Part shown: positions 2,739-48,204 of the stretch, piece by piece
How positions within the stretch are numbered: the stretch's first letter is position 1
How the letters are laid out: every line of letters starts with the position of its first letter
DNA from: Escherichia phage vB_EcoD_Opt-719
Length of the DNA stretch: 48,302 nt
Sequence record: OL539451.1
Direction: 5' to 3' (one strand)
Position numbers and translations under genes: made by a program
Notes under the pieces: model-generated
Told to the model about the DNA's origin: nothing
The model's input: the letters and a program-made list of their open reading frames with translations, nothing else
Databases searched by the model: none

Positions 2739-4007
2739 ATGGTAAAAGCAGACAGCTACGCAAACATCTTTCTTAACGGGAGTGATGGTAGCGAGATTTA
2801 CGGAAGGTTTGGCGGCCTTGGCTTAACAGCTCCAGCGCAGCTTGAGCAGCTTTACGTCAGTAGCGCACTGGTTCGTCGAATTATTGATATCGTGCCAGAG
2901 GTTGCACTTGGCGCTGGCTTTAACATTGAGGGTATCGACGATGAAGGTGCTTTCTGGTCGCGCTGGGATGATTTAGACCTTTCAGATAGTGTAATCGACG
3001 CACTGGCGTGGGCAAGATTATACGGTGGAGCTGCTGTAGTGGCAATTGTCAAGGATGGCAGGGCGCTAACTAGCCAGGTTAGGGAGGGAGCTGAACTTGA
3101 AACTATCCGCGTCTACGACCGACAGCAAATTAAGGTTCAGACTCGAGAGGAGAATCCACGTAACGCGCGATTTGGAAAGCCAGTTACCTATCGCATTACG
3201 CCAAATGGTTCGGCCACATTCTACGACGTGCATTACACTCGCTGCCACATCATCGATGGCGAAAGGGTTCCGAACAACCTACGCCGCAACAACGATGGTT
3301 GGGGCGCAAGCGTGCTAACTGGTGACTTAATCGACGCGATTGACGACTATCAGAACTGTGAGAGACTGGCTACTCAGTTACTTCGTCGAAAGCAACAGGC
3401 TGTGTGGAAAGCGAAAGGTTTGGCTGATTTATGCGATGATTCTGATGGATTTGGTGCAGCTCGCTTACGCCTGGCGCAGGTTGATAATAACAGCGGCGTT
3501 GGTCAGGCTATTGGTATTGATGCAGAGAGTGAAGAATATGACGTTCTTAACTCTGACATTGGTGGTATTGATGCATTCTTGAGCCAGAAGTTCGACAGAA
3601 TCGTTGCCCTGAGCGGCATCCATGAAATCATTCTCAAGGCCAAGAATACTGGAGGTGTATCAGCTAGCCAAAACACAGCCCTTGAGACTTTCTATGGTTA
3701 TGTTGACCGCAAGCGCAAGTCAGACCTGCTTCCTTTACTTGGTTTCCTGATTCAATTTATTGTCACTCAGGACGAATGGTCAGTTGAATTTAATCCACTA
3801 TCTCAAGTTAGCGATAAAGATAAATCTGAGATTCTAGAGAAGAACGTTAACTCAGTTTCAGCTCTTGTTGCTGGTGGCGTGATGAATACTGATGAAGCCC
3901 GTGATACACTACGAGCTATTGCGCCAGAGGTTAAGCTGCAAGATGGTGATATTGAGCAAACCGCTCAGGGGAAAACAGTCGAGGAGGTAGTGATTAATGA
4001 AGAGTAA
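2739..4007 (+). CDS. putative portal protein
   Basis: 422-aa ORF directly after terminase region, acidic C-terminus; portal call by position and size, family not verified. Confidence 0.55.
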   Translation: MVKADSYANIFLNGSDGSEIYGRFGGLGLTAPAQLEQLYVSSALVRRIIDIVPEVALGAGFNIEGIDDEGAFWSRWDDLDLSDSVIDALAWARLYGGAAVVAIVKDGRALTSQVREGAELETIRVYDRQQIKVQTREENPRNARFGKPVTYRITPNGSATFYDVHYTRCHIIDGERVPNNLRRNNDGWGASVLTGDLIDAIDDYQNCERLATQLLRRKQQAVWKAKGLADLCDDSDGFGAARLRLAQVDNNSGVGQAIGIDAESEEYDVLNSDIGGIDAFLSQKFDRIVALSGIHEIILKAKNTGGVSASQNTALETFYGYVDRKRKSDLLPLLGFLIQFIVTQDEWSVEFNPLSQVSDKDKSEILEKNVNSVSALVAGGVMNTDEARDTLRAIAPEVKLQDGDIEQTAQGKTVEEVVINEE

Positions 4008-5106
4008 AATGCGTTATGACAGCGCTAAAGTAAAAGCCCGTTTCGATGAGAACGGGTTTCTAGTGGACACTCCAGTGGTTGCTCGTGTTGGTGTTCAAAC
4101 ATACTACATGCCAGATGGCTCAGAGCGCCGAGAGTTCCGACCAGCATCAGAGGTGTTTAAATCCGATTCCCTGCAAAGCTATCAGGGCAAGCCGCTTACG
4201 CTTGGTCATGTAGTTGTTAATTCAGATAACGCCAAGGATGTTGTAGTTGGAGCAGTATCTGGTGCAGCTATGCGTCAGGATTCTACAGTTGTCGTTCCTC
4301 TAACAGTTTACGATAAGCAGGCAATAGAAAAGGCTAAGTCTGGCGTTGCTGGTGAGCTATCGGTTGGCTATAACACTGTTGATATTGAGTCTCCTGGCTG
4401 GGGTAGTAACGAAACGGGTGAGTATAAGCTTGATGGAGAGTACGCAAGCCAGGATGATATCCCTGCTGATTGGGTACGCTTTGATGCCCTGCAAACAAAC
4501 ATCGTTGTGAACCACATTGCTCTGGTATATAAAGGCCGCGCGCAAGTAGCTAAACTGAATCTGGACGCGGAACAGGAAAACCCGTATACTGATACCGTTC
4601 AATCAAATAAAGAGGATAAATTGATGATTAAGATTAAACTGGATGGCGAGCAGGAGTTCGAAATCGCCCCGGAAGTTGCTAAGCACATCGAAGCTGTTAA
4701 AGCTGATGCAGAACAGGCAAAAGCAAAAGCTGACACCCTTGAAGCTGAGCGTGACGCACTGAAAGCTAAAGTTGATGGCATTCCTGCTGAAATTGAATCT
4801 GCCGTAGCGAAAGCTAAAGCTGATGCTGACGAACTGGCCGCTCTGGTTGCTACCGCTGCAGAAGCTGGCGTTAAAGCTGATGGTATGGATGCTAAAGCAA
4901 TCAAAGTTGCTTACGTTAAAGAAGTATCCGGCCTTGACGTTGCAGAGAAATCTGACGCATACATCGATGCGGCCTTTGATATCGCTAAAGATAGTGATAA
5001 AATGGCTGAAGTCCGCAAAGCAGTTGTTGCTGCGGATAAATCTGACGCTGCCGACGCGCCTAAGAAATTAGACCCGCGCGCTCGCCTCGCTAAATTGAAA
5101 AAATAA
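3997..5106 (+). CDS. putative head maturation protease/scaffolding protein
   Basis: 369 aa; globular N-terminal domain then long Ala/Lys/Glu/Asp-rich coiled-coil-like C-terminus; GAGGAGG RBS; between portal and capsid genes. Confidence 0.45.
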   Translation: MKSKMRYDSAKVKARFDENGFLVDTPVVARVGVQTYYMPDGSERREFRPASEVFKSDSLQSYQGKPLTLGHVVVNSDNAKDVVVGAVSGAAMRQDSTVVVPLTVYDKQAIEKAKSGVAGELSVGYNTVDIESPGWGSNETGEYKLDGEYASQDDIPADWVRFDALQTNIVVNHIALVYKGRAQVAKLNLDAEQENPYTDTVQSNKEDKLMIKIKLDGEQEFEIAPEVAKHIEAVKADAEQAKAKADTLEAERDALKAKVDGIPAEIESAVAKAKADADELAALVATAAEAGVKADGMDAKAIKVAYVKEVSGLDVAEKSDAYIDAAFDIAKDSDKMAEVRKAVVAADKSDAADAPKKLDPRARLAKLKK

Positions 5107-5117
5107 GGAGTCTTAAT

Positions 5118-5588
5118 ATGGCAATTCGTCGTCAAGCTACTGCTGGTATGGTTGCAGATACCTCTCTGTACAATATCGATGGTGCCTGTGTAATGTCTAC
5201 CGGCGTAGTCCAGGGTGTCGGTTATGCTGTTGGTGTCGGTTCTGTTGATGCTGATGGTCACAAAGTTCTGATTTCCGCTGTTGCTGATAACGTATACGGC
5301 GTCCTGGTGAAGTCACACTACGAAAGCCCGCGTGGTTCTTACGGTGGTGTTGTTGGTAACATTGATAACTTCCAGGTCGCAAACGTAATGACTCACGGTC
5401 GCATCTGGATGGTTACCGGCCTTCCTTCTGCTCCTGCATTTGGTAGTGCTGTTACCATTGATACTAATGGTTCCGCAACAAGCGGCGGCGCAGTCACTAC
5501 CAACTGGACCTTCGCCGGTGGTTTCCAGGCAGCTGACACTGTGTCTGGCGAACCAGCACTGGTTGAAGTTCAGGTTATTCAGAAATAA
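5118..5588 (+). CDS. putative head decoration or minor capsid protein
   Basis: 156 aa Gly/Val/Ala-rich; AAGGAG RBS; strong terminator downstream; function by position only. Confidence 0.35.
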   Translation: MAIRRQATAGMVADTSLYNIDGACVMSTGVVQGVGYAVGVGSVDADGHKVLISAVADNVYGVLVKSHYESPRGSYGGVVGNIDNFQVANVMTHGRIWMVTGLPSAPAFGSAVTIDTNGSATSGGAVTTNWTFAGGFQAADTVSGEPALVEVQVIQK

Positions 5589-5604
5589 TTAGCAAAGCTA
5601 AACT

Positions 5605-5628
5605 AAACCTCCTCCGGGAGGTTTTTTT
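5605..5628 (+). terminator. rho-independent terminator
   Basis: hairpin AAACCTCC-TCCG-GGAGGTTT followed by T-run. Confidence 0.75.
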
Positions 5629-5640
5629 ATGCCTGTAAAC

Positions 5641-5649
5641 TGGTACAAT
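5641..5649 (+). promoter_or_regulatory. extended -10 promoter element TGgTACAAT
   Basis: TGnTACAAT right after terminator and ~25 bp before RBS of the SGNH gene; identical element recurs at 48196-48204. Confidence 0.4.
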
Positions 5650-5678
5650 TAGTTTCACTTTAAATCGGAGGAATGAAA

Positions 5679-6965
5679 ATGGCTAGCTTCTTGGAATTGG
5701 TAAGAGATAACATTGATAAGGGTTTAGCGACAATGCAGCCCGTTCAGTTATCAACTGAGTTTACTGCAATTAAAGAGATTAGGGTAGCAACATCAATCAC
5801 CACGCCACAAACAATATCAAGGAGTGATGAAACAAAGCTAATGTATACAACTTACGGGCTTGCTAACGTAGCTGGTGGTTCATACACAGGACAATCGCCA
5901 AACGGAGTCCAGATGAAGGTTGAGTTTATGACTGACTCAACTTTGTTCGAAATCAAAACCATCGGCTCAATCGGCACTTACTCAATTTTTATTGACGGCA
6001 AACTGGTAAATGCTGATGCATTCGCTACGCCAAATGGAGAGGCGGTGAGCTGGATGCAAGTTAAAGCTAATGACGGAGTTATCAGCGGGAAACTTCGACA
6101 CGTTGAAATCTACGGCATCAACTCAGCATTCGGAGCCTTCGTGTTTGGTGCTGGCGACACGGTTAGTCGTGAAATCTCAATCAAGCGCCCGCTTATTTAT
6201 CAGATGGGTGATAGTTATACTTATGGAACTGGTGCTGGATTCAGGACTCAAGCTTACGGCTCATCTCCTGCCGTAAATGACTTCTATGCATTCACCAGGT
6301 CTCTTGGTTTTGATGGTATTGCTGAAGGAATTGGTGGATCAGGATGGAACTCAGCTGCCGGTCAGTATCCAATGTCTCGCGTGCAAACAAGGCTTGCAAA
6401 GCTAAATCGCAAGCCGTCAGTTATCTCCTGGGCGCTTGGATATAATGATGCCGCTGCCATCCTGACTGGAACAAATAGCCAAAAGCTACTAGTTTCGATG
6501 GGTGAGTGTCTCGCTGAGACTAGGAAGGTTTATAGTGACGTTCCAATCATCCAGATTAGCAGCGCAACGCCGAAGGGAATTACCACTGGAATTCAGAAGG
6601 TAATTGATTTGGTTAATGGTTTTTGTTCTGATAACGACATTCCAGTAATTAACATAAGTAGCTATGTTACTAATGCTAACTCGGCAATTTATACAGGAAC
6701 AGACAACGTTCACCCGGGAACTCTTGGCCATGAGTTTAGGGGAATGGCAATGGCTCGCGAGGTTCTGCTTGCAGCCTCGGGTCAGAAATCACTAACAGTC
6801 CCAGTTACGCCGCGTGCATTTAACGTGGTAGCAAGGCTGACTAAAAGTTTTGGAGTTACAATCTTCTCTGGTGTAGTAAATGCTATTGATGAGAATGATG
6901 TTGCCGGACAGCTATACTTGCAGACTGGTGCTCGAGTGGAAATTCTCTCAGTATCTCGCGCCTAA
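5679..6965 (+). CDS. SGNH/GDSL-family hydrolase domain protein
   Basis: ordered GDSL blocks in C-terminal half: GDSYTYG, GYND, DNVHPGTLGH; ~170-aa non-catalytic N-domain; start set to ATG 5679 (GGAGGA RBS spacing); track start 5673. Confidence 0.65.
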   Translation: MASFLELVRDNIDKGLATMQPVQLSTEFTAIKEIRVATSITTPQTISRSDETKLMYTTYGLANVAGGSYTGQSPNGVQMKVEFMTDSTLFEIKTIGSIGTYSIFIDGKLVNADAFATPNGEAVSWMQVKANDGVISGKLRHVEIYGINSAFGAFVFGAGDTVSREISIKRPLIYQMGDSYTYGTGAGFRTQAYGSSPAVNDFYAFTRSLGFDGIAEGIGGSGWNSAAGQYPMSRVQTRLAKLNRKPSVISWALGYNDAAAILTGTNSQKLLVSMGECLAETRKVYSDVPIIQISSATPKGITTGIQKVIDLVNGFCSDNDIPVINISSYVTNANSAIYTGTDNVHPGTLGHEFRGMAMAREVLLAASGQKSLTVPVTPRAFNVVARLTKSFGVTIFSGVVNAIDENDVAGQLYLQTGARVEILSVSRA

Positions 6966-6969
6966 TATC

Positions 6970-6992
6970 AAACCTCCTTCGGGAGGTTTTTT
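6970..6992 (+). terminator. rho-independent terminator
   Basis: hairpin AACCTCC-TTCG-GGAGGTT followed by TTTTTT. Confidence 0.75.
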
Positions 6993-7046
6993 ATTGCTCT
7001 TTTTCTGTTAGACTGTCAATGATTATTAACCAATCAGGAGATAAAG

Positions 7047-7577
7047 ATGGCTTACACAGAAATTGCTATGGCGGTAGGGAATTCACCTGAAATCTTAGCC
7101 AGGAACGTAAAAATGATGATGTCATCTGGATTTCAGCCATATGGTGACGTCCAGATGCTAAGCGGCACTCTCTTTGGCATGAAAATGGCCAAGGGAACAG
7201 CAAACAACGTTGAAGACTTTATGGTGACATCCGACACCACAGTTCAGGGATTGATTAACAGGGTTAACCGATATCTTTTGCAGGGCTGGAAAAGGTTTGG
7301 CAATGCTCACTTTGAGGATGGAGCATATCTTTCAGCACTTGCGAAAGGTGATTTTGTAAGTGATGAAGACGGAGGCTCAGGTGAAGCAGGCCCACAAGGT
7401 CCGATTGGTCCACAGGGTCCAGCAGGTCCCGCAGGCGCAGCTGGTCCGCAAGGTCCTCAAGGTCCAACTGGTGCAACTGGCCCAGCGGGTGCGGCAGGTG
7501 CTAAAGGTGACACTGGCCCACAAGGTCCGGCAGGTCCGCAAGGTCCTCAAGGTGAAACTGGCGAGGCTGGTCCATAG
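7047..7577 (+). CDS. collagen-like repeat protein, upstream segment ending at in-frame amber
   Basis: ~110-aa N-domain then ~22 uninterrupted Gly-X-Y triplets (GPQGP...); ends at TAG 7575-7577 inside the repeat. Confidence 0.6.
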
Positions 7578-8558
7578 GGTCCTATCGGCCCAACGGGCGC
7601 CACAGGTCCGGCTGGCCCAAAAGGTGATAAAGGTGATGCAGGCCCAGTTGGCCCGGCAGGATTAACTTTCCGCGGGATGTACGACGCAGCTACTGCTTAC
7701 GTTAAAGATGATGTGGTTACATTCAATAACTCTAGCTGGTTTGCTACCGCCGCTGTGACCGGAGAGAATCCAGATGTTAGCGATTCCTGGGAGTTGCTGG
7801 CCGCGCAGGGCGCTCCAGGTCCGCAAGGCGCAACTGGTCCAGCAGGCCCAACTGGCCCGGCAGGCCCTGCAGGTATTCAGGGACCTCAGGGAGAGAGAGG
7901 GCTTCATGGTGAGCAAGGTCCGTCAGGCCCGCAAGGCTTGCAAGGTGCAGCTGGTCCAGTTGGACCTCAAGGCCCAGCAGGTCCTCAGGGTGAGCGAGGA
8001 ATACAGGGTCCGGTTGGCCCTCAAGGATTGCAGGGTGTAAAAGGTGATCCAGGCGTTAATTCTACATATACACTACCTTTAAAAAACTACCTTGTAATAG
8101 CCCTTAATGAAGAGGAGGGGGCGAGGCAGACATTCAGGGTGCCAGAAGACAGTTCGGGAGCTGAAATAGCTTTTGTGGTCAGAAATAAAGATTCTTCAAA
8201 CACTTCACCATCTGGAGTTTATGAGCTGGGATGTGGAGTGACTGGTACGGCTTCAATGCACTTTTCAGGTTGGATTATTAGTAACCTTAACCAACCAGAT
8301 AAAATAAGATCAGCCTCTATGCTAATTGCTTCCATGACTAATAGTCAGCGATACTTTACGCAGTTAGCAATAGGAACAAGGGGTGATCTTTTTAAAGGTT
8401 GCTTAACCAATCAGGAAACTGGTGAGCTATGGTACATTGAGGCTTTTGGTACCAAGCCAAGAGGGGCAGGGCAAACCGACTTAGGTAGACTCTCAGTTAA
8501 GATTGAGAAAAGAGTTGATACAGTAGTTGGAAGCTTAACAAAATTCCCAAGAGTTTAA
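7578..8558 (+). CDS. collagen-like repeat protein, downstream segment in same frame (possible readthrough product or pseudogene remnant)
   Basis: frame open immediately after the TAG; Gly-X-Y phase continues for 10 triplets, second collagen run, then ~200-aa C-terminal globular domain; first ATG at 7677. Confidence 0.5.
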
Positions 8559-8598
8559 GCTTTGCTCAAGGATGAGCACCCATGCATTGATATAGCTA

Positions 8599-8626
8599 TT
8601 GTCCCAATCGAAATCTCGTGTATAAT
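8599..8626 (+). promoter_or_regulatory. sigma70-like promoter (-35 TTGTCC, -10 TATAAT)
   Basis: perfect TATAAT at 8621-8626 preceded by TG, 16-bp spacer to TTGTCC; ~40 bp upstream of capsid gene start. Confidence 0.45.
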
Positions 8627-8664
8627 TGACACGTAAACTCATAAACAAAAGGATGCATCTTAAT

Positions 8665-9612
8665 ATGACTATCAAACTTGACGCTTTCGAGCAAGAAAAG
8701 ATTACTAACCACCTGCGCGCTATGGGTGTTGATAAGGCTGATGCGGCTGGTATCTGGACTGTTAAGCAGCTCACCGCAAGCCTGAATAAAGCTTACGAAA
8801 CCGAGTACGACCAGAACTCCGTAGTAAATCTGTTCCCTGTAAGTAATGAAATCCCTGGCTACGCTAAATATTTTGAGTATCCGGTATTTGATGGCGTAGG
8901 TATTGCTCAGATCGTAGCTGATTACACTGATGACCTGCCGCTGGTTGATGCCTTGGCAACTGAACGTCAGGGTAAAGTTTTCCGCTTCGGTAACGCTTTC
9001 CTGATTTCCATTGATGAAATTAAAGTTGGTCAAGCTACCGGTCAGTCTCTGTCTACTCGCAAGCAGTCTCTTGCTTTCGAAGCTCACGACAAGCTTCTTG
9101 ATAAACTGGTGTGGTCCGGCTCTACTGCTCACGGCATCCCTAGCGTTTTCGACTACCCGAACATCAACAACGTTGTTAGCGCTGGCTCATGGTCTCAGCC
9201 AACTACTGCGGTAAGTGATATTACAAGTCTCTTGGATATTATCGAGACTTCAACCAATGGTCAGCACCGTGCGACTCACCTGCTTCTGCCTACTACCGCT
9301 CGTCGTATCATGCAGAACCTGGTACCTGGCACTTCTGTTAGCTACGGTGAATTCTTCCGTCAGAACAATAGCGGCGTAACAGTTGAGTTCGTTCAGTACC
9401 TGAATGATTACAATGGTTCTGGCACCTCTGCAGCTATCGCTTATGAGAAAGACCCTAACAACATGGCAATCGAGATTCCGGAAGCGACTAACGCACTGCC
9501 GGCTCAGCCGCGCGACTTGCACTTCCGTGTTCCGGTAACTTCTAAAGCAACTGGCTTGATCGTGTATCGTCCTTTGACCATGGCTGTAATGAAAGGCATC
9601 ACCTTCGCGTAA
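8665..9612 (+). CDS. putative major capsid protein
   Basis: ~316 aa from ATG 8665 (track start TTG 8626); own promoter and strong terminator; position in head module; family not verified. Confidence 0.6.
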   Translation: MTIKLDAFEQEKITNHLRAMGVDKADAAGIWTVKQLTASLNKAYETEYDQNSVVNLFPVSNEIPGYAKYFEYPVFDGVGIAQIVADYTDDLPLVDALATERQGKVFRFGNAFLISIDEIKVGQATGQSLSTRKQSLAFEAHDKLLDKLVWSGSTAHGIPSVFDYPNINNVVSAGSWSQPTTAVSDITSLLDIIETSTNGQHRATHLLLPTTARRIMQNLVPGTSVSYGEFFRQNNSGVTVEFVQYLNDYNGSGTSAAIAYEKDPNNMAIEIPEATNALPAQPRDLHFRVPVTSKATGLIVYRPLTMAVMKGITFA

Positions 9613-9634
9613 TAGCAATTATTGCTTACCACTT

Positions 9635-9660
9635 GCCACCCTTCGGGGTGGTATTTTTGT
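9635..9660 (+). terminator. rho-independent terminator
   Basis: hairpin CCACCC-TTCG-GGGTGG followed by T-rich run. Confidence 0.7.
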
Positions 9661-9704
9661 TTATATGACTATATAATCAAACAATCGAAACAAAGGAGGA
9701 AAGA

Positions 9705-9950
9705 ATGAAACTGTTACATAAAGGTGCTTGTGTTATCCGTCTTGGCGCAAAAGATTATCTTCCAGGCGACACCATCGAGGTTGAAGAGTTATCAGTTGGA
9801 TTAAAGATTCTGGTAGCTGAAGGCAAGCTTGAGGTTGAGGATGACCACAAGGCAACTAAAGAAATCGAGCAGGAAGTTAAAGCCAAGGCTAAGCCGAAGA
9901 AGCAACCAAAGAGTATTGATGAAGCTGAGAATGGCGGCGACTACAAATAA
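9705..9950 (+). CDS. hypothetical protein (81 aa)
   Basis: strong AGGAGG RBS; Lys/Glu-rich C-terminus; between capsid and head-tail genes. Confidence 0.4.
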   Translation: MKLLHKGACVIRLGAKDYLPGDTIEVEELSVGLKILVAEGKLEVEDDHKATKEIEQEVKAKAKPKKQPKSIDEAENGGDYK

Positions 9951-9994
9951 ACCAAGAGGGCGCTTCGGCGTCCTTTATTGTATGGAGATATAAA

Positions 9995-10396
9995 ATGAAT
10001 GAAGAAGTAATTGCGTACATGCGCACGCTTTACCCGCCTCTTAAGGGTCAGCCTGATGATGTTCTTAACGCATGGATTGAGGTGGCAAGGCTATTTATCT
10101 GCTTAGATAAGTTTGGCGACAAGCAGGTTCAGGCATTGGCATTCTACACGCTTCACTTGCTTAGCCAGGATATCGCACTGAAGACTGAGAATGATTCAAG
10201 CCAGACATCCTCTGACCGGGTTAAGTCCTACTCCCTTTCCGGCGAATACACTATTAGCTATGATACAAGCACAGCTTCCGCAAGCTCATCTAACCTTGAG
10301 GCTTCATCATGGGGTAAGCTTTACATTGATTTGATGCGTCGTAAAGTTGGCCGCTGGGGTTTGATTACGTCTGGTGGGTCGAGGTGCTGCCGATGA
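9995..10396 (+). CDS. putative head-tail connector/adaptor protein
   Basis: 133-aa ORF in head-tail joining position; GGAGA RBS; assignment by synteny only. Confidence 0.35.
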   Translation: MNEEVIAYMRTLYPPLKGQPDDVLNAWIEVARLFICLDKFGDKQVQALAFYTLHLLSQDIALKTENDSSQTSSDRVKSYSLSGEYTISYDTSTASASSSNLEASSWGKLYIDLMRRKVGRWGLITSGGSRCCR

Positions 10397-10761
10397 ATCA
10401 CGCACTCTTGCAGCAGCAGATCAAGGCTGGTATTAATCTCCTGTCAGATGGTGATGGCGCTTTCGAAGCTACTACCCAGCCAACCATCTCGATAGTAAAT
10501 GGCTACGAAGTGCGCACGCCTGGCACTTCATACGCAGTGAGGGGTGTTATCCGTGAATTCAAAGCGCGAGACATTGACGGTGACATCATCAAATTCGGTG
10601 ACCGTCGCGGAATTTTTACTGCTGATTCAGTTGTATCGGAAGGCGACCGCATCTACATTGACCAGGAGGCCTACACAGTCATTGACCCGCGACCAGTGAA
10701 GCCAACTGGCACGGTAATCGCCTACAGGCCAGTATTACGGAGGGCTGCTACTTATGGCTAA
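10384..10761 (+). CDS. putative head-tail joining protein
   Basis: 125-aa ORF overlapping neighbours by a few codons; synteny only. Confidence 0.35.
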   Translation: MLPMNHALLQQQIKAGINLLSDGDGAFEATTQPTISIVNGYEVRTPGTSYAVRGVIREFKARDIDGDIIKFGDRRGIFTADSVVSEGDRIYIDQEAYTVIDPRPVKPTGTVIAYRPVLRRAATYG

Positions 10762-12235: not shown

Positions 12236-12241
12236 CAATCA

Positions 12242-12266
12242 AGCCCCTTCACAGGGGCTTTTTTTA
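12242..12266 (+). terminator. rho-independent terminator followed by extended -10 (TGtTATAAT 12267-12275)
   Basis: hairpin AGCCCC-TTCACA-GGGGCT plus T-run; TGnTATAAT immediately downstream. Confidence 0.7.
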
Positions 12267-12308
12267 TGTTATAATTTCAACTCAAACAAACACGAGAGGA
12301 TTATTTAA

Positions 12309-30102: not shown

Positions 30103-30153
30103 TTTATTTCTCCTCTTTGATAGATGAAACCTATTGTATCAGATTAGTTGTAA

Positions 30154-30175
30154 TAAAAAACCCTCCGAAGAGGGT
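30154..30175 (-). terminator. rho-independent terminator (minus strand)
   Basis: hairpin CCCTC-CGAA-GAGGG with A-run on plus strand (T-run on minus) just downstream of primase-like gene end. Confidence 0.6.
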
Positions 30176-47746: not shown

Positions 47747-47822
47747 GTTCTGTTAGTGTAAGTGGACAGCACGAAGACCTCCTAAGTCTTAGGTACTGGT
47801 TCAAGTCCAGTGCGGAACGCCA
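47747..47822 (+). tRNA. tRNA-Arg (anticodon CCU)
   Basis: 76 nt cloverleaf by hand: 7-bp acceptor (GTTCTGT/GCGGAAC, two G-U), D-stem GTGT/GCAC with GG in loop, anticodon loop CUCCUAA, T-arm ACTGG-TTCAAGT-CCAGT, encoded CCA. Confidence 0.8.
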
Positions 47823-47827
47823 AATAT

Positions 47828-47929
47828 GCTCACGTTGCTAATGTTGGCCTAAGGGTGGAGCTTATACCTCCATAAAGCAATCACCAGATAAGTGATGTAA
47901 CGCAGGTTCGATTCCTGCCGTGAGCACCA
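47828..47929 (+). tRNA. atypical tRNA-like element (102 nt incl. CCA)
   Basis: perfect 7-bp acceptor pairing GCTCACG/CGTGAGC, T-arm GCAGG-TTCGATT-CCTGC, discriminator A plus CCA; two candidate anticodon stem-loops (CUUAUAC, CAGAUAA); D-region ~26 nt too long. Confidence 0.35.
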
Positions 47930-48159: not shown

Positions 48160-48183
48160 GCCCTCCTCGTGAGGGCTTTTTTT
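48160..48183 (+). terminator. rho-independent terminator
   Basis: hairpin GCCCTC-CTCGT-GAGGGC followed by TTTTTTTT. Confidence 0.7.
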
Positions 48184-48195
48184 CGTCTCTACTCA

Positions 48196-48204
48196 TGGTA
48201 CAAT
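48196..48204 (+). promoter_or_regulatory. extended -10 promoter element TGgTACAAT
   Basis: same TGnTACAAT element as at 5641-5649; ~20 bp upstream of AGGAGG RBS. Confidence 0.4.

Follow-up and report, generated by a model that had tools for sequence, protein, structure and literature searches.

In the genome of Escherichia phage vB_EcoD_Opt-719, a T1-like coliphage of the Rogunavirinae (Drexlerviridae), the gap between the capsid cement gene and the major capsid protein gene is a variable slot with two rare accessory structural genes, acquired independently. One encodes a putative SGNH esterase and the other a collagen-like fibre, interrupted in Opt-719 by an amber codon. On balance, the two products are probably dispensable proteins of the virion surface, more precisely of the capsid, which would bind and deacetylate glycans. 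The window analysed is the whole stretch of 48,302 nucleotides (record OL539451.1), and the region is 100% identical in records OL539447, OL539453 and OL539467. The slot and its borders comprise the following features:

5118–5588, + strand: capsid cement/decoration gene, 156 aa, upstream border of the slot (PF22758 Phage_cement, E 6e-22)
5605–5627, + strand: intrinsic terminator, copy 1 of a 23-nt direct repeat, AAACCTCCTCCGGGAGGTTTTTT (hairpin 5605–5624, then a T-run)
5641–5649, + strand: TGGTACAAT, extended -10-like promoter element, 14 nt past the terminator T-run
5679–6965, + strand: SGNH esterase gene, 428 aa, 45.6 kDa (PF13472, PF00657)
6970–6992, + strand: intrinsic terminator, copy 2 of the direct repeat (hairpin 6970–6989, then a T-run; one loop base different)
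7047–8558, + strand: collagen-like gene, whole frame including the internal TAG (503 aa, 51 kDa if read through)
8599–8626, + strand: sigma-70-like promoter, TTGTCC-16-TATAAT, ahead of the capsid gene (10/12 consensus positions)
8665–9612, + strand: major capsid protein gene, downstream border of the slot (GenBank annotation of an identical record)

The Pfam match of the upstream border gene bears out the original prediction of a decoration-like gene ending at 5588; the cement protein family is represented in 831 phage records. Phage Sf11, also of the Drexlerviridae, has a decoration protein of 155 aa whose gene adjoins the capsid gene and which forms trimers at all threefold sites (PMC12724387). 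The orthologue of the Opt-719 major capsid protein encoded on the metagenome scaffold L011 matches PF09950, and the promoter-like site noted ahead of the capsid gene is present, in agreement with the consensus at the positions given above.

The content of the slot varies among related phages. It holds the collagen gene only in Rogue1, JK06, C119 and phiKP26, the esterase gene only in IME542 and the P0013 contig, and both genes in Sd1, Sf12, AugustePiccard and Opt-719; in Sf11 it appears to be empty, judging solely from consecutive gene numbers. Ten Drexlerviridae records contain an esterase homologue, and 23 phage records the collagen protein's N-terminal domain (tblastn against phage records); the position of both genes in the slot is constant in two Drexlerviridae subfamilies. 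Since either gene is found without the other, they constitute two modules; the single accessory cassette proposed earlier does not stand up to this synteny comparison, in which the genes are distributed independently. The proposed bounding of the 3-kb stretch by terminators also fails at the 3′ side: no terminator-like hairpin follows the collagen gene (8556–8600 folded, z -0.8), so the stretch is not terminator-bounded on both sides.

The terminators predicted to flank the esterase gene are supported by folding, with -12.8 kcal/mol (z -3.9) for the copy at 5605 and -14.0 kcal/mol (z -5.2) for the copy at 6970; none of 200 shuffles folds as well as either hairpin. The 23-nt hairpin sequence occurs at these two sites only in the whole window, with 0 occurrences expected by chance. 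The promoter proposed for the esterase gene is a candidate. The TGGTACAAT element is present as an extended -10-like motif, and its spacing from a terminator recurs, with TGnTAnAAT lying about 15–20 nt past a terminator at three or four genome sites (elsewhere at 12267 (+), 48196 (+) and 30141 (-)), but a -35 element is missing and the bare motif TGNTACAAT is weakly enriched (5 found versus 2.1 expected; 5 of 100 shuffles reach 5).

In alignments, Opt-719 follows the Rogue1 and JK06 sequences as far as terminator copy 1 and rejoins them from copy 2 on, where the collinear stretch corresponds to the sequence preceding the collagen gene in these two phages. The esterase gene is missing from Rogue1, JK06, C119 and phiKP26, with junctions exactly at the duplicated terminator, which supports the horizontal insertion suggested for this gene. 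As far as can be read from the DNA, the esterase unit is a moron-like clean insertion with a duplicated terminator: it is missing from close relatives and has precise junctions between two conserved genes. The esterase gene may have arrived in one piece, complete with promoter-like element and terminator; entry by recombination at the terminator hairpin would have left this hairpin on both sides.

The start of the esterase gene is placed at 5679 (the ORF lister gives 5673), the only ATG that relatives have being equivalent to 5679. The product is assigned by profile and predicted fold to the SGNH/GDSL superfamily as a putative esterase. The predicted hydrolase with its motifs GDSYTYG, GYND and DNVHPGTLGH was recovered, and the profile search confirms it, with 43.7 bits for PF13472 (cut-off 32.9) and 34.4 bits for PF00657 (cut-off 23.6). 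The SGNH residues G177-D178-S179, G220/G222, N256-D257, D342 and H345 are invariant in 18 family members. The AF2 model (pLDDT 84, pTM 0.82) suggests the following organisation:

aa 4–13: N-terminal helix
aa 28–157 (nt 5757–6158): beta-sandwich
aa 172–366 (nt 6192–6776): SGNH domain
nt 6213–6215: predicted catalytic Ser179
nt 6711–6713: predicted catalytic His345
aa 379–427 (nt 6813–6959): small beta-beta-alpha-beta C-terminal domain

The SGNH part of the model has an alpha/beta/alpha flavodoxin-like fold, with a Foldseek probability of 1.00 to many SGNH structures (TMt 0.73 to TAP, 5tic). The best fold matches are two-domain SGNH enzymes: SsfX3 (3skv; E 4.5e-13) and the CE2 esterases 2wab, 2wao, 2waa, 4xvh and Est2A (E 4e-11 to 3e-8); the peptidoglycan O-acetylesterase Ape1 is also among them. 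Alignments to 2wab, 2wao, 2waa, 2w9x and 4xvh are full-length (353–395 columns). Like the CE2 enzymes (CtCE2 2wab/2wao, CjCE2 2waa/2w9x, Est2A 3u37) and SsfX3, the protein has an N-terminal jelly-roll or beta-sandwich followed by the SGNH domain, with target-normalised TM-scores of 0.49–0.66; it differs from them in having additional terminal elements and in a sequence identity of just 11–17%. The CE2_N profile gives no match to the Opt-719 esterase at E<=0.1, and in its relatives reaches 15 bits, far under the cut-off of 27.9. By its modelled architecture the esterase is thus CE2-like; by sequence profile it falls outside CE2.

A homologous beta-sandwich and SGNH core is found in the Karamvirus ‘Hoc’ proteins, for example that of Enterobacter phage PG7 (YP_009005270). 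Residues 27–355 of the esterase align to residues 189–500 of the PG7 protein with 34% identity over 331 columns (E 8e-52), and residues 9–75 of the PG7 protein align to T4 Hoc 294–361, the C-terminal capsid-binding region (E 1e-10). The Opt-719 esterase lacks this N-terminal anchor segment and has instead the short N-terminal helix and the C-terminal domain of about 50 aa. A search for the Hoc capsid-binding domain (T4 Hoc ~290–376) gives no match of the esterase to PDB Hoc chains at E<=1, and there is no Ig-like Pfam match of the kind expected from T4 Hoc; the model contains a single jelly-roll-like sandwich joined to the enzyme domain. Both the esterase and the Karamvirus ‘Hoc’ proteins fall in PHROG 9703, labelled ‘head decoration’. 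The Karamvirus homologue of Cronobacter phage Pet-CM3-4 is deposited under the name ‘Head outer capsid protein (c-part SGNH hydrolase)’. No experimental characterisation of the Opt-719 esterase or of a Karamvirus ‘Hoc’ homologue was found in the literature searched.

The esterase might also act outside the virion, as a transcriptionally autonomous moron enzyme, lysis-released or intracellular; it might then destroy or modify O-acetylated receptors carried by debris and nearby cells, or exclude other phages. Its own promoter-like element and terminator, its patchy distribution and the missing recognisable capsid-binding domain are in keeping with such a role. This reading is nevertheless quite improbable, given that on inspection the N-terminus has no obvious signal peptide, that the extra termini outside the enzyme core (aa 1–26 and 366–428) are conserved among the Drexlerviridae homologues, and that the homologous module is joined to a capsid anchor in Karamvirus. 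In phage PhiPsa374, moreover, an unrelated SGNH hydrolase of 44.7 kDa is an abundant virion protein (PMC9796965).

The second gene of the slot encodes a collagen-like protein, as had been predicted. Its G-X-Y repeats are uninterrupted (33 + 28 triplets; PF01391 47.7 and 61 bits, cut-off 27.2), but it is not one open frame:

7047–7577, + strand: 5′ part, predicted 176 aa, 17.6 kDa, ending at the TAG
7575–7577, + strand: in-frame amber TAG, codon 177, splitting the collagen-like frame
7578–8558, + strand: 3′ in-frame remainder
to 7667, + strand: rest of collagen segment 1
about 7668–7808, + strand: CBM5/12-like insert (match under the Pfam threshold)
7809–8060, + strand: collagen segment 2, 28 triplets
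8061–8555, + strand: orphan all-beta C-terminal domain

The 5′ part comprises a lineage-conserved N-terminal domain (aa 1–108), with a weak DUF1737 match under the Pfam threshold, and 22 complete G-X-Y triplets. An internal duplication of this domain, as two DUF1737-like halves, was suspected and found no support by BLASTP. The N-terminal domain is 92–95% conserved within the Rogunavirinae and 25% in AugustePiccard; a large-database search with it returned one candidate only, a 90-aa fragment. The distal domain differs between Opt-719, Sf12/Sd1 and Rogue1/JK06. A HMMER search with the distal 170 aa against 1.84 billion representatives returned four proteins only, which are giant and adhesin-like; the matches cover stretches of about 50 aa of PKD/Big_9 repeats and hint at an Ig-like fold of the distal domain. 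The single-sequence, single-chain AF2 model of the 3′ part (7578–8555) has a pLDDT of 35. PADLOC and NCBIfam scans show only generic similarity to collagen adhesins, far under the cut-offs. The fibre may be a trimer with an N-terminal anchor domain, two collagen stalks around a CBM5/12-like module and, at the distal end, an exchangeable beta domain.

Rogue1 gp21, JK06 JK_26 and the AugustePiccard ‘collagen repeat protein’ are orthologues in the same slot. In the JK06 fibre, most of the collagen region is gone, as is the CBM-like insert; among these orthologues and Opt-719, the nonsense codon is a feature of the Opt-719 copy. In Sf12, Sd1 and Rogue1, glutamine is encoded at the position of the TAG, and scaffold L011, with 10 differences from Opt-719 over about 3.6 kb, has CAG at the site within an intact ORF of 503 aa. 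In this comparison, a single C-to-T change at 7575 turned an ancestral CAG into TAG, and the codon is read as a nonsense mutation. As the relatives and L011 encode glutamine, the Opt-719 product would be a stump of 176 aa, barring suppression of the codon; such a truncated fibre would consist of the anchor and 22 triplets, with both putative binding modules removed. Both halves of the gene are mislabelled ‘DNA polymerase’ in the database.

Stop-codon reassignment and phage-encoded suppression of TAG were considered and ruled out by the usage of this codon, which ends 8 of the 74 ORFs, the large terminase gene included, and by the missing suppressor tRNA: apart from Arg(CCT), the genome contains just an odd tRNA-like gene, which has no CUA anticodon. 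It is also very unlikely that the full-length 51-kDa fibre is still made, through a glutamine-inserting host suppressor or read-through, or that an error of sequencing or assembly common to the records produced the TAG. A suppressor of the supE/glnV44 type would restore exactly the ancestral glutamine, and there is no second disabling mutation downstream of the TAG; the three records bearing it are identical and come from a single submission series. Against this stand the use of TAG to end other genes and the tRNA content just given; these three deposited records agree on the codon, and inspection reveals no slippery or read-through context. The collagen pair is the only pair of ORFs observed to continue in frame over a single stop and to be homologous to one intact gene in relatives.

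The location of the fibre is suggested by its orthologue. Mass spectrometry of purified Rogue1 virions identified gp21, with 59.5% coverage, in a prominent band, one of three analysed among the roughly six that SDS-PAGE resolved (PMC3496638). The predicted capsid fibre is upheld to this extent as a virion protein, but its position on the capsid rather than the tail or neck is what we infer. The same holds for the proposed virion-borne deacetylase, for which the Hoc-fused Karamvirus homologues and the CE2 fold speak. Phage SPP1 offers a precedent in gp12, an auxiliary protein of the capsid that is collagen-like and trimeric and to which a role in host adhesion is ascribed (review PMC7602432). 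The Opt-719 frame is likened to it by description; with 503 aa and 61 triplets in two segments, it differs in having N-terminal, internal and C-terminal globular modules, and its capsid binding would follow by inference. SPP1 gp12 itself is tiny (~6.6 kDa), with 8 G-X-Y triplets, and its gene lies directly upstream of the SPP1 capsid gene.

Alternatively, the virion may carry both proteins at its tail or neck, in the form of side fibres or whiskers with a fibre-associated esterase, the position of the genes in the head module being incidental. The collagen protein is labelled as a tail fibre in PHROGs and RefSeq, and most of the viral proteins in BFVD with a fold close to that of the esterase bear a tail fibre or minor tail protein annotation. 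A distant esterase homologue lies after the terminase gene in Peggy, and another, in CN1A, is downstream of the head genes and beside tail-fibre genes. For the collagen-like proteins of E. coli prophages, a role as side tail fibres is assumed (PMC3368898), and tailspike SGNH esterases, such as those of Moo19/B2, are established as virion-borne enzymes acting on O-antigen acetyl groups (PMC11654681). SGNH esterases of the G7C gp63.1 type also belong to phage tailspikes and tail fibres. Those tailspike and tail-fibre esterases are trimeric tail proteins encoded in the tail module, whereas the Opt-719 enzyme is CE2-like, probably monomeric and encoded in the head module. The ‘tail fibre’ labels come from the collagen repeats, with no anchor-domain homology behind them; both subfamilies keep the two genes between those for the cement and capsid proteins, the Karamvirus homologues are fused to a Hoc capsid-binding domain, and the isolates with the TAG show that truncation of the fibre is compatible with viability. 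A tail or neck location is regarded as unlikely.

The favoured reading is that both proteins would be on the outside of the virion, most likely on the capsid. There, they could attach weakly and reversibly to surface glycans (O-antigen, capsule or similar), which the putative O-acetyl-esterase would deacetylate. Such contact would increase the chance of productive adsorption, in the manner suggested for Hoc, SPP1 gp12 and the head fibres of phi29, and both proteins would be dispensable for plaque formation. The published electron microscopy description of Rogue1 makes no mention of head fibres, and no description of capsid fibres or capsid esterases of Drexlerviridae was found in the literature searched.

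Known decoration proteins of capsids serve either as cement (gpD, Soc) or as passive adhesins (Hoc, pb10, SPP1 gp12), and enzymes attacking host surface glycans are known on tails. The esterase and the fibre of the slot are a variant of known decoration and fibre systems. The database annotations can be corrected, as ‘DNA polymerase’ is wrong for the fibre halves and the labels ‘tail fiber’ and ‘head decoration’ are without evidence. The slot exists in four natural states (empty, esterase, fibre, both) in easily grown coliphages, one of them from the BASEL collection. Opt-719 represents a natural single-base knock-out of the fibre, the wild-type allele of which is known from the metagenome; if the proteins are displayed on the capsid, this amber mutant would be a ready-made fibre-less control. 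It is suggested tentatively, as a possibility rather than an expectation, that capsids of Drexlerviridae, and of Karamvirus, display an active carbohydrate O-acetyl-esterase as a decoration protein, acting jointly with long collagen head fibres with exchangeable receptor-binding-like tips. If true, a capsid-mounted esterase would blur the division between tail enzymes and passive capsids; the capsid would be a receptor-modifying surface instead of a passive shell, and there would be a testable route for a role of the head in host finding or in the release of progeny from debris.

The original prediction of accessory genes between the cement and major capsid genes of phage vB_EcoD_Opt-719 is real, but in need of correction. 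The genes in and around this slot are arranged as follows:

2739–4007, portal
3997–5106, prohead protease
5118–5588, 156-aa protein matching Pfam Phage_cement (PF22758, E 6e-22)
5679–6965, SGNH hydrolase (the esterase)
7047–8558, collagen-like protein (the fibre)
8665–9612, major capsid protein

By cryo-EM, the Drexlerviridae phage Sf11 has trimers of a 155-aa decoration protein at all threefold sites of its T=7 capsid; this protein, gp40, is numbered consecutively with capsid gene gp39 (PMC12724387). Window positions 5100–9700 are 100% identical to OL539447 (Escherichia phage Phleasolo), OL539453 (Klebsiella phage Opt-79) and OL539467 (Escherichia phage Sadiya), all from Drexlerviridae subfamily Rogunavirinae; parts of the region are 84–89% identical to Sf12, Sd1, C119, phiKP26, Rogue1, phiJLA23 and JK06. 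The three records, identical over this region, are nearly equal in length and list hosts of three genera (E. coli, Klebsiella pneumoniae and Serratia marcescens), which suggests one phage isolated repeatedly, or carry-over between stocks.

The proposed single cassette resolves into two modules, each found without the other among relatives. The contents of the slot are:

Collagen-like gene only: Rogue1, JK06, C119, phiKP26
Esterase gene only: IME542 and a 50-kb metagenomic Drexlerviridae contig
Both genes: Sd1, Sf12, AugustePiccard (Bas01, subfamily Braunvirinae) and the window
Both genes and an additional orphan ORF that has its own terminator: Sf12
Apparently neither: Sf11, judged solely from the consecutive numbers gp39 and gp40

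The orphan of Sf12, gp59 (174 aa; positions 2030–2554 of the Sf12 stretch), is a third accessory ORF in the slot, with a different terminator hairpin and no Pfam match. Neither main gene is common: against 831 phage records with the cement protein, the esterase homologue turns up in 10 Drexlerviridae records and the fibre N-domain in 23.

Terminators had been proposed as bounds of the whole region. The hairpins exist at 5605–5624 and 6970–6989 (−12.8 and −14.0 kcal/mol; equalled by 0 of 200 shuffles), and the 23-nt hairpin plus T-run sequence occurs only twice in the genome, on either side of the esterase gene; a folding check of the 3′ side of the collagen-like gene found no terminator-like hairpin. 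The esterase unit (promoter-like element, gene and terminator) was cleanly inserted or deleted at the hairpin, since the window runs collinear with Rogue1 and JK06 until the first terminator copy and again from the second. Its anatomy is that of a classical moron. The promoter-like element, TGGTACAAT (5641–5649), is weakly enriched as a bare motif (5 found, 2.1 expected), and a terminator followed by TGnTAnAAT about 15–20 nt on recurs at 12267, 48196 and 30141 (minus strand). Units of GC-rich hairpin, T-run and TGnTAnAAT punctuate the genome at 12241–12275, 48160–48204 and 30133–30170 (minus strand); they are terminator–promoter pairs, with the same design as that ahead of the esterase gene. 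The predicted capsid promoter at 8599–8626 agrees with the consensus at 10 of 12 positions.

The first description of the SGNH gene and its motifs holds, with Pfam GDSL matches above thresholds, and the start at 5679 is correct since relatives have no other equivalent ATG. Across 18 aligned homologues, GDS (177–179), G220/G222, ND (256–257), D342 and H345 are all invariant. The AF2 model (pLDDT 84.4, pTM 0.82) comprises:

N-terminal helix
aa 28–157, beta-sandwich
aa 172–366, SGNH domain
aa 379–427, small beta-beta-alpha-beta C-terminal domain

Its best full-length structural matches are two-domain SGNH enzymes, including SsfX3 (E 4.5e-13) and the CE2 carbohydrate esterases 2wab, 2wao, 2waa, 2w9x, 4xvh and Est2A (E 4e-11 to 3e-8); the peptidoglycan O-acetylesterase Ape1 is a weaker match. 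By Pfam profile comparison, however, the protein lies outside the CE2 family.

Esterase residues 27–355 align with residues 189–500 of the 511-aa ‘Hoc’ of Enterobacter phage PG7 (34% identity, E 8e-52). Comparable matches occur in about 50 further records, mostly of T4-like phages (Karamvirus and relatives), with a few jumbo Erwinia phages. Residues 9–75 of PG7 Hoc align with T4 Hoc 294–361, the C-terminal capsid-binding region (E 1e-10). In Karamvirus-type phages, the homologous enzyme module is thus joined to a genuine capsid anchor, which explains the ‘head decoration’ label of PHROG 9703. Sequence comparison detected no Hoc anchor in the window esterase, the nearest viral predicted structures are mostly labelled tail proteins and distant homologues have other genomic contexts; a head location is therefore plausible rather than proven. 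The Karamvirus proteins lack the terminal elements aa 1–26 and 366–428, whereas Drexlerviridae homologues conserve both, and these may be considered candidate attachment elements. The PG7 ‘hoc’ gene (4437–5972 of the PG7 stretch) lies between gp39.1-like and topoisomerase genes, in the early region next to rIIA, which is presumably not the canonical position of T4 hoc.

The fibre has the following architecture:

Residues 1–108, N-domain, weak DUF1737 match (above threshold in AugustePiccard)
Residues 109–207, collagen segment 1, 33 triplets, TAG in triplet 23
Residues 208–254, CBM5/12-like insert, a sub-threshold match at E 0.004 (IPR003610 is cited in the Sd1 record)
Residues 255–338, collagen segment 2, 28 triplets
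Residues 339–503, C-terminal domain

The N-domain is found in Drexlerviridae only, with 92–95% identity in Rogunavirinae and 25–41% in e4/1c, MM01, Phagiculus, RobRod40 and AugustePiccard. The distal domain is wholly different among the window, Sf12/Sd1 and Rogue1/JK06; that of the window has no other match among 50,697 phage records and, among 1.84 billion representative proteins, matches only short PKD/Big_9 repeat stretches of giant adhesin-like proteins. A conserved anchor combined with an exchangeable tip is what one would expect of an attachment fibre. The JK06 orthologue (2079–2915 of the JK06 stretch) retains almost nothing of its two collagen segments and CBM-like insert, owing to a deletion between G-P-x-G-P repeats, noted previously (PMC3496638); stalk length is thus evolutionarily plastic.

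The collagen-like gene had been read as one open frame, but codon 177 is an in-frame TAG (7575–7577), giving G-P-stop-G-P where the Sf12, Sd1 and Rogue1 orthologues have G-P-Q-G-P. A 48,576-bp metagenome scaffold (ENA ERZ28647096, TSOL21-1 scaffold_138) encodes an identical esterase, differs from the window at just 10 positions between 5573 and 9200, and has C for T at 7575, so that the codon reads CAG and the 503-aa ORF is uninterrupted. TAG serves as a normal stop in this genome and closes 8 of 74 ORFs, among them the large terminase gene. In a host with a glutamine-inserting suppressor, the exact wild-type fibre protein would be made; the genome itself encodes no amber suppressor tRNA, its tRNA genes being tRNA-Arg(CCT) (47747–47822) and an aberrant tRNA-like gene, ruled out as a suppressor by its lack of a CUA anticodon. 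The TAG is therefore a nonsense mutation that arose recently, through one base change, in the isolate lineage. The unsuppressed product is a 17.6-kDa stump of N-domain and 22 triplets; by inspection, no obvious ribosome-binding site precedes the downstream ATG at 7677. Plaques are still formed, so under laboratory conditions the phage can do without the distal two thirds of the fibre, as expected of an accessory fibre and not of an essential receptor-binding protein.

The tRNA-like gene (47828–47926, plus strand) directly follows tRNA-Arg(CCT), scores 42.7 bits with Rfam tRNA and has a 33-nt D-loop insertion; ARAGORN places it at 47837–47929 with the anticodon unnamed, and the Rfam alignment suggests GAU. 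Differences between scaffold and window, compared over 5573–10465, jump to 138 from 9207 onward, indicating a recombination breakpoint near there, within the major capsid gene.

The fibre, truncated in the window, is virion-borne in a relative: gp21 of Rogue1, its orthologue, was identified by mass spectrometry of purified virions (59.5% coverage), one of three bands identified out of about six, although not recognised as collagen-like; the negative-stain description reports no head fibres (PMC3496638). Collagen-like E. coli prophage proteins are regarded as side tail fibres (PMC3368898), and SPP1 gp12 is a known collagen-like trimeric capsid decoration (PMC7602432). Both halves of the gene are annotated ‘DNA polymerase’ in OL539447, OL539453 and OL539467, an error inherited from JK06 JK_26 and flagged in 2012 (PMC3496638); in RefSeq, the collagen repeats have led to the orthologues being renamed ‘tail fiber protein’.

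Relative to Hoc, SPP1 gp12 and tailspike esterases, the pair is a variant and no new category. The esterase is predicted to be CE2-like, with a strong evolutionary link to capsid display. Both genes are independently mobile accessory structural genes of the cement-to-capsid slot of a T1-like phage, and their most likely function would be an auxiliary one, dispensable to the phage, in which the virion surface, probably that of the capsid, binds and deacetylates glycans.
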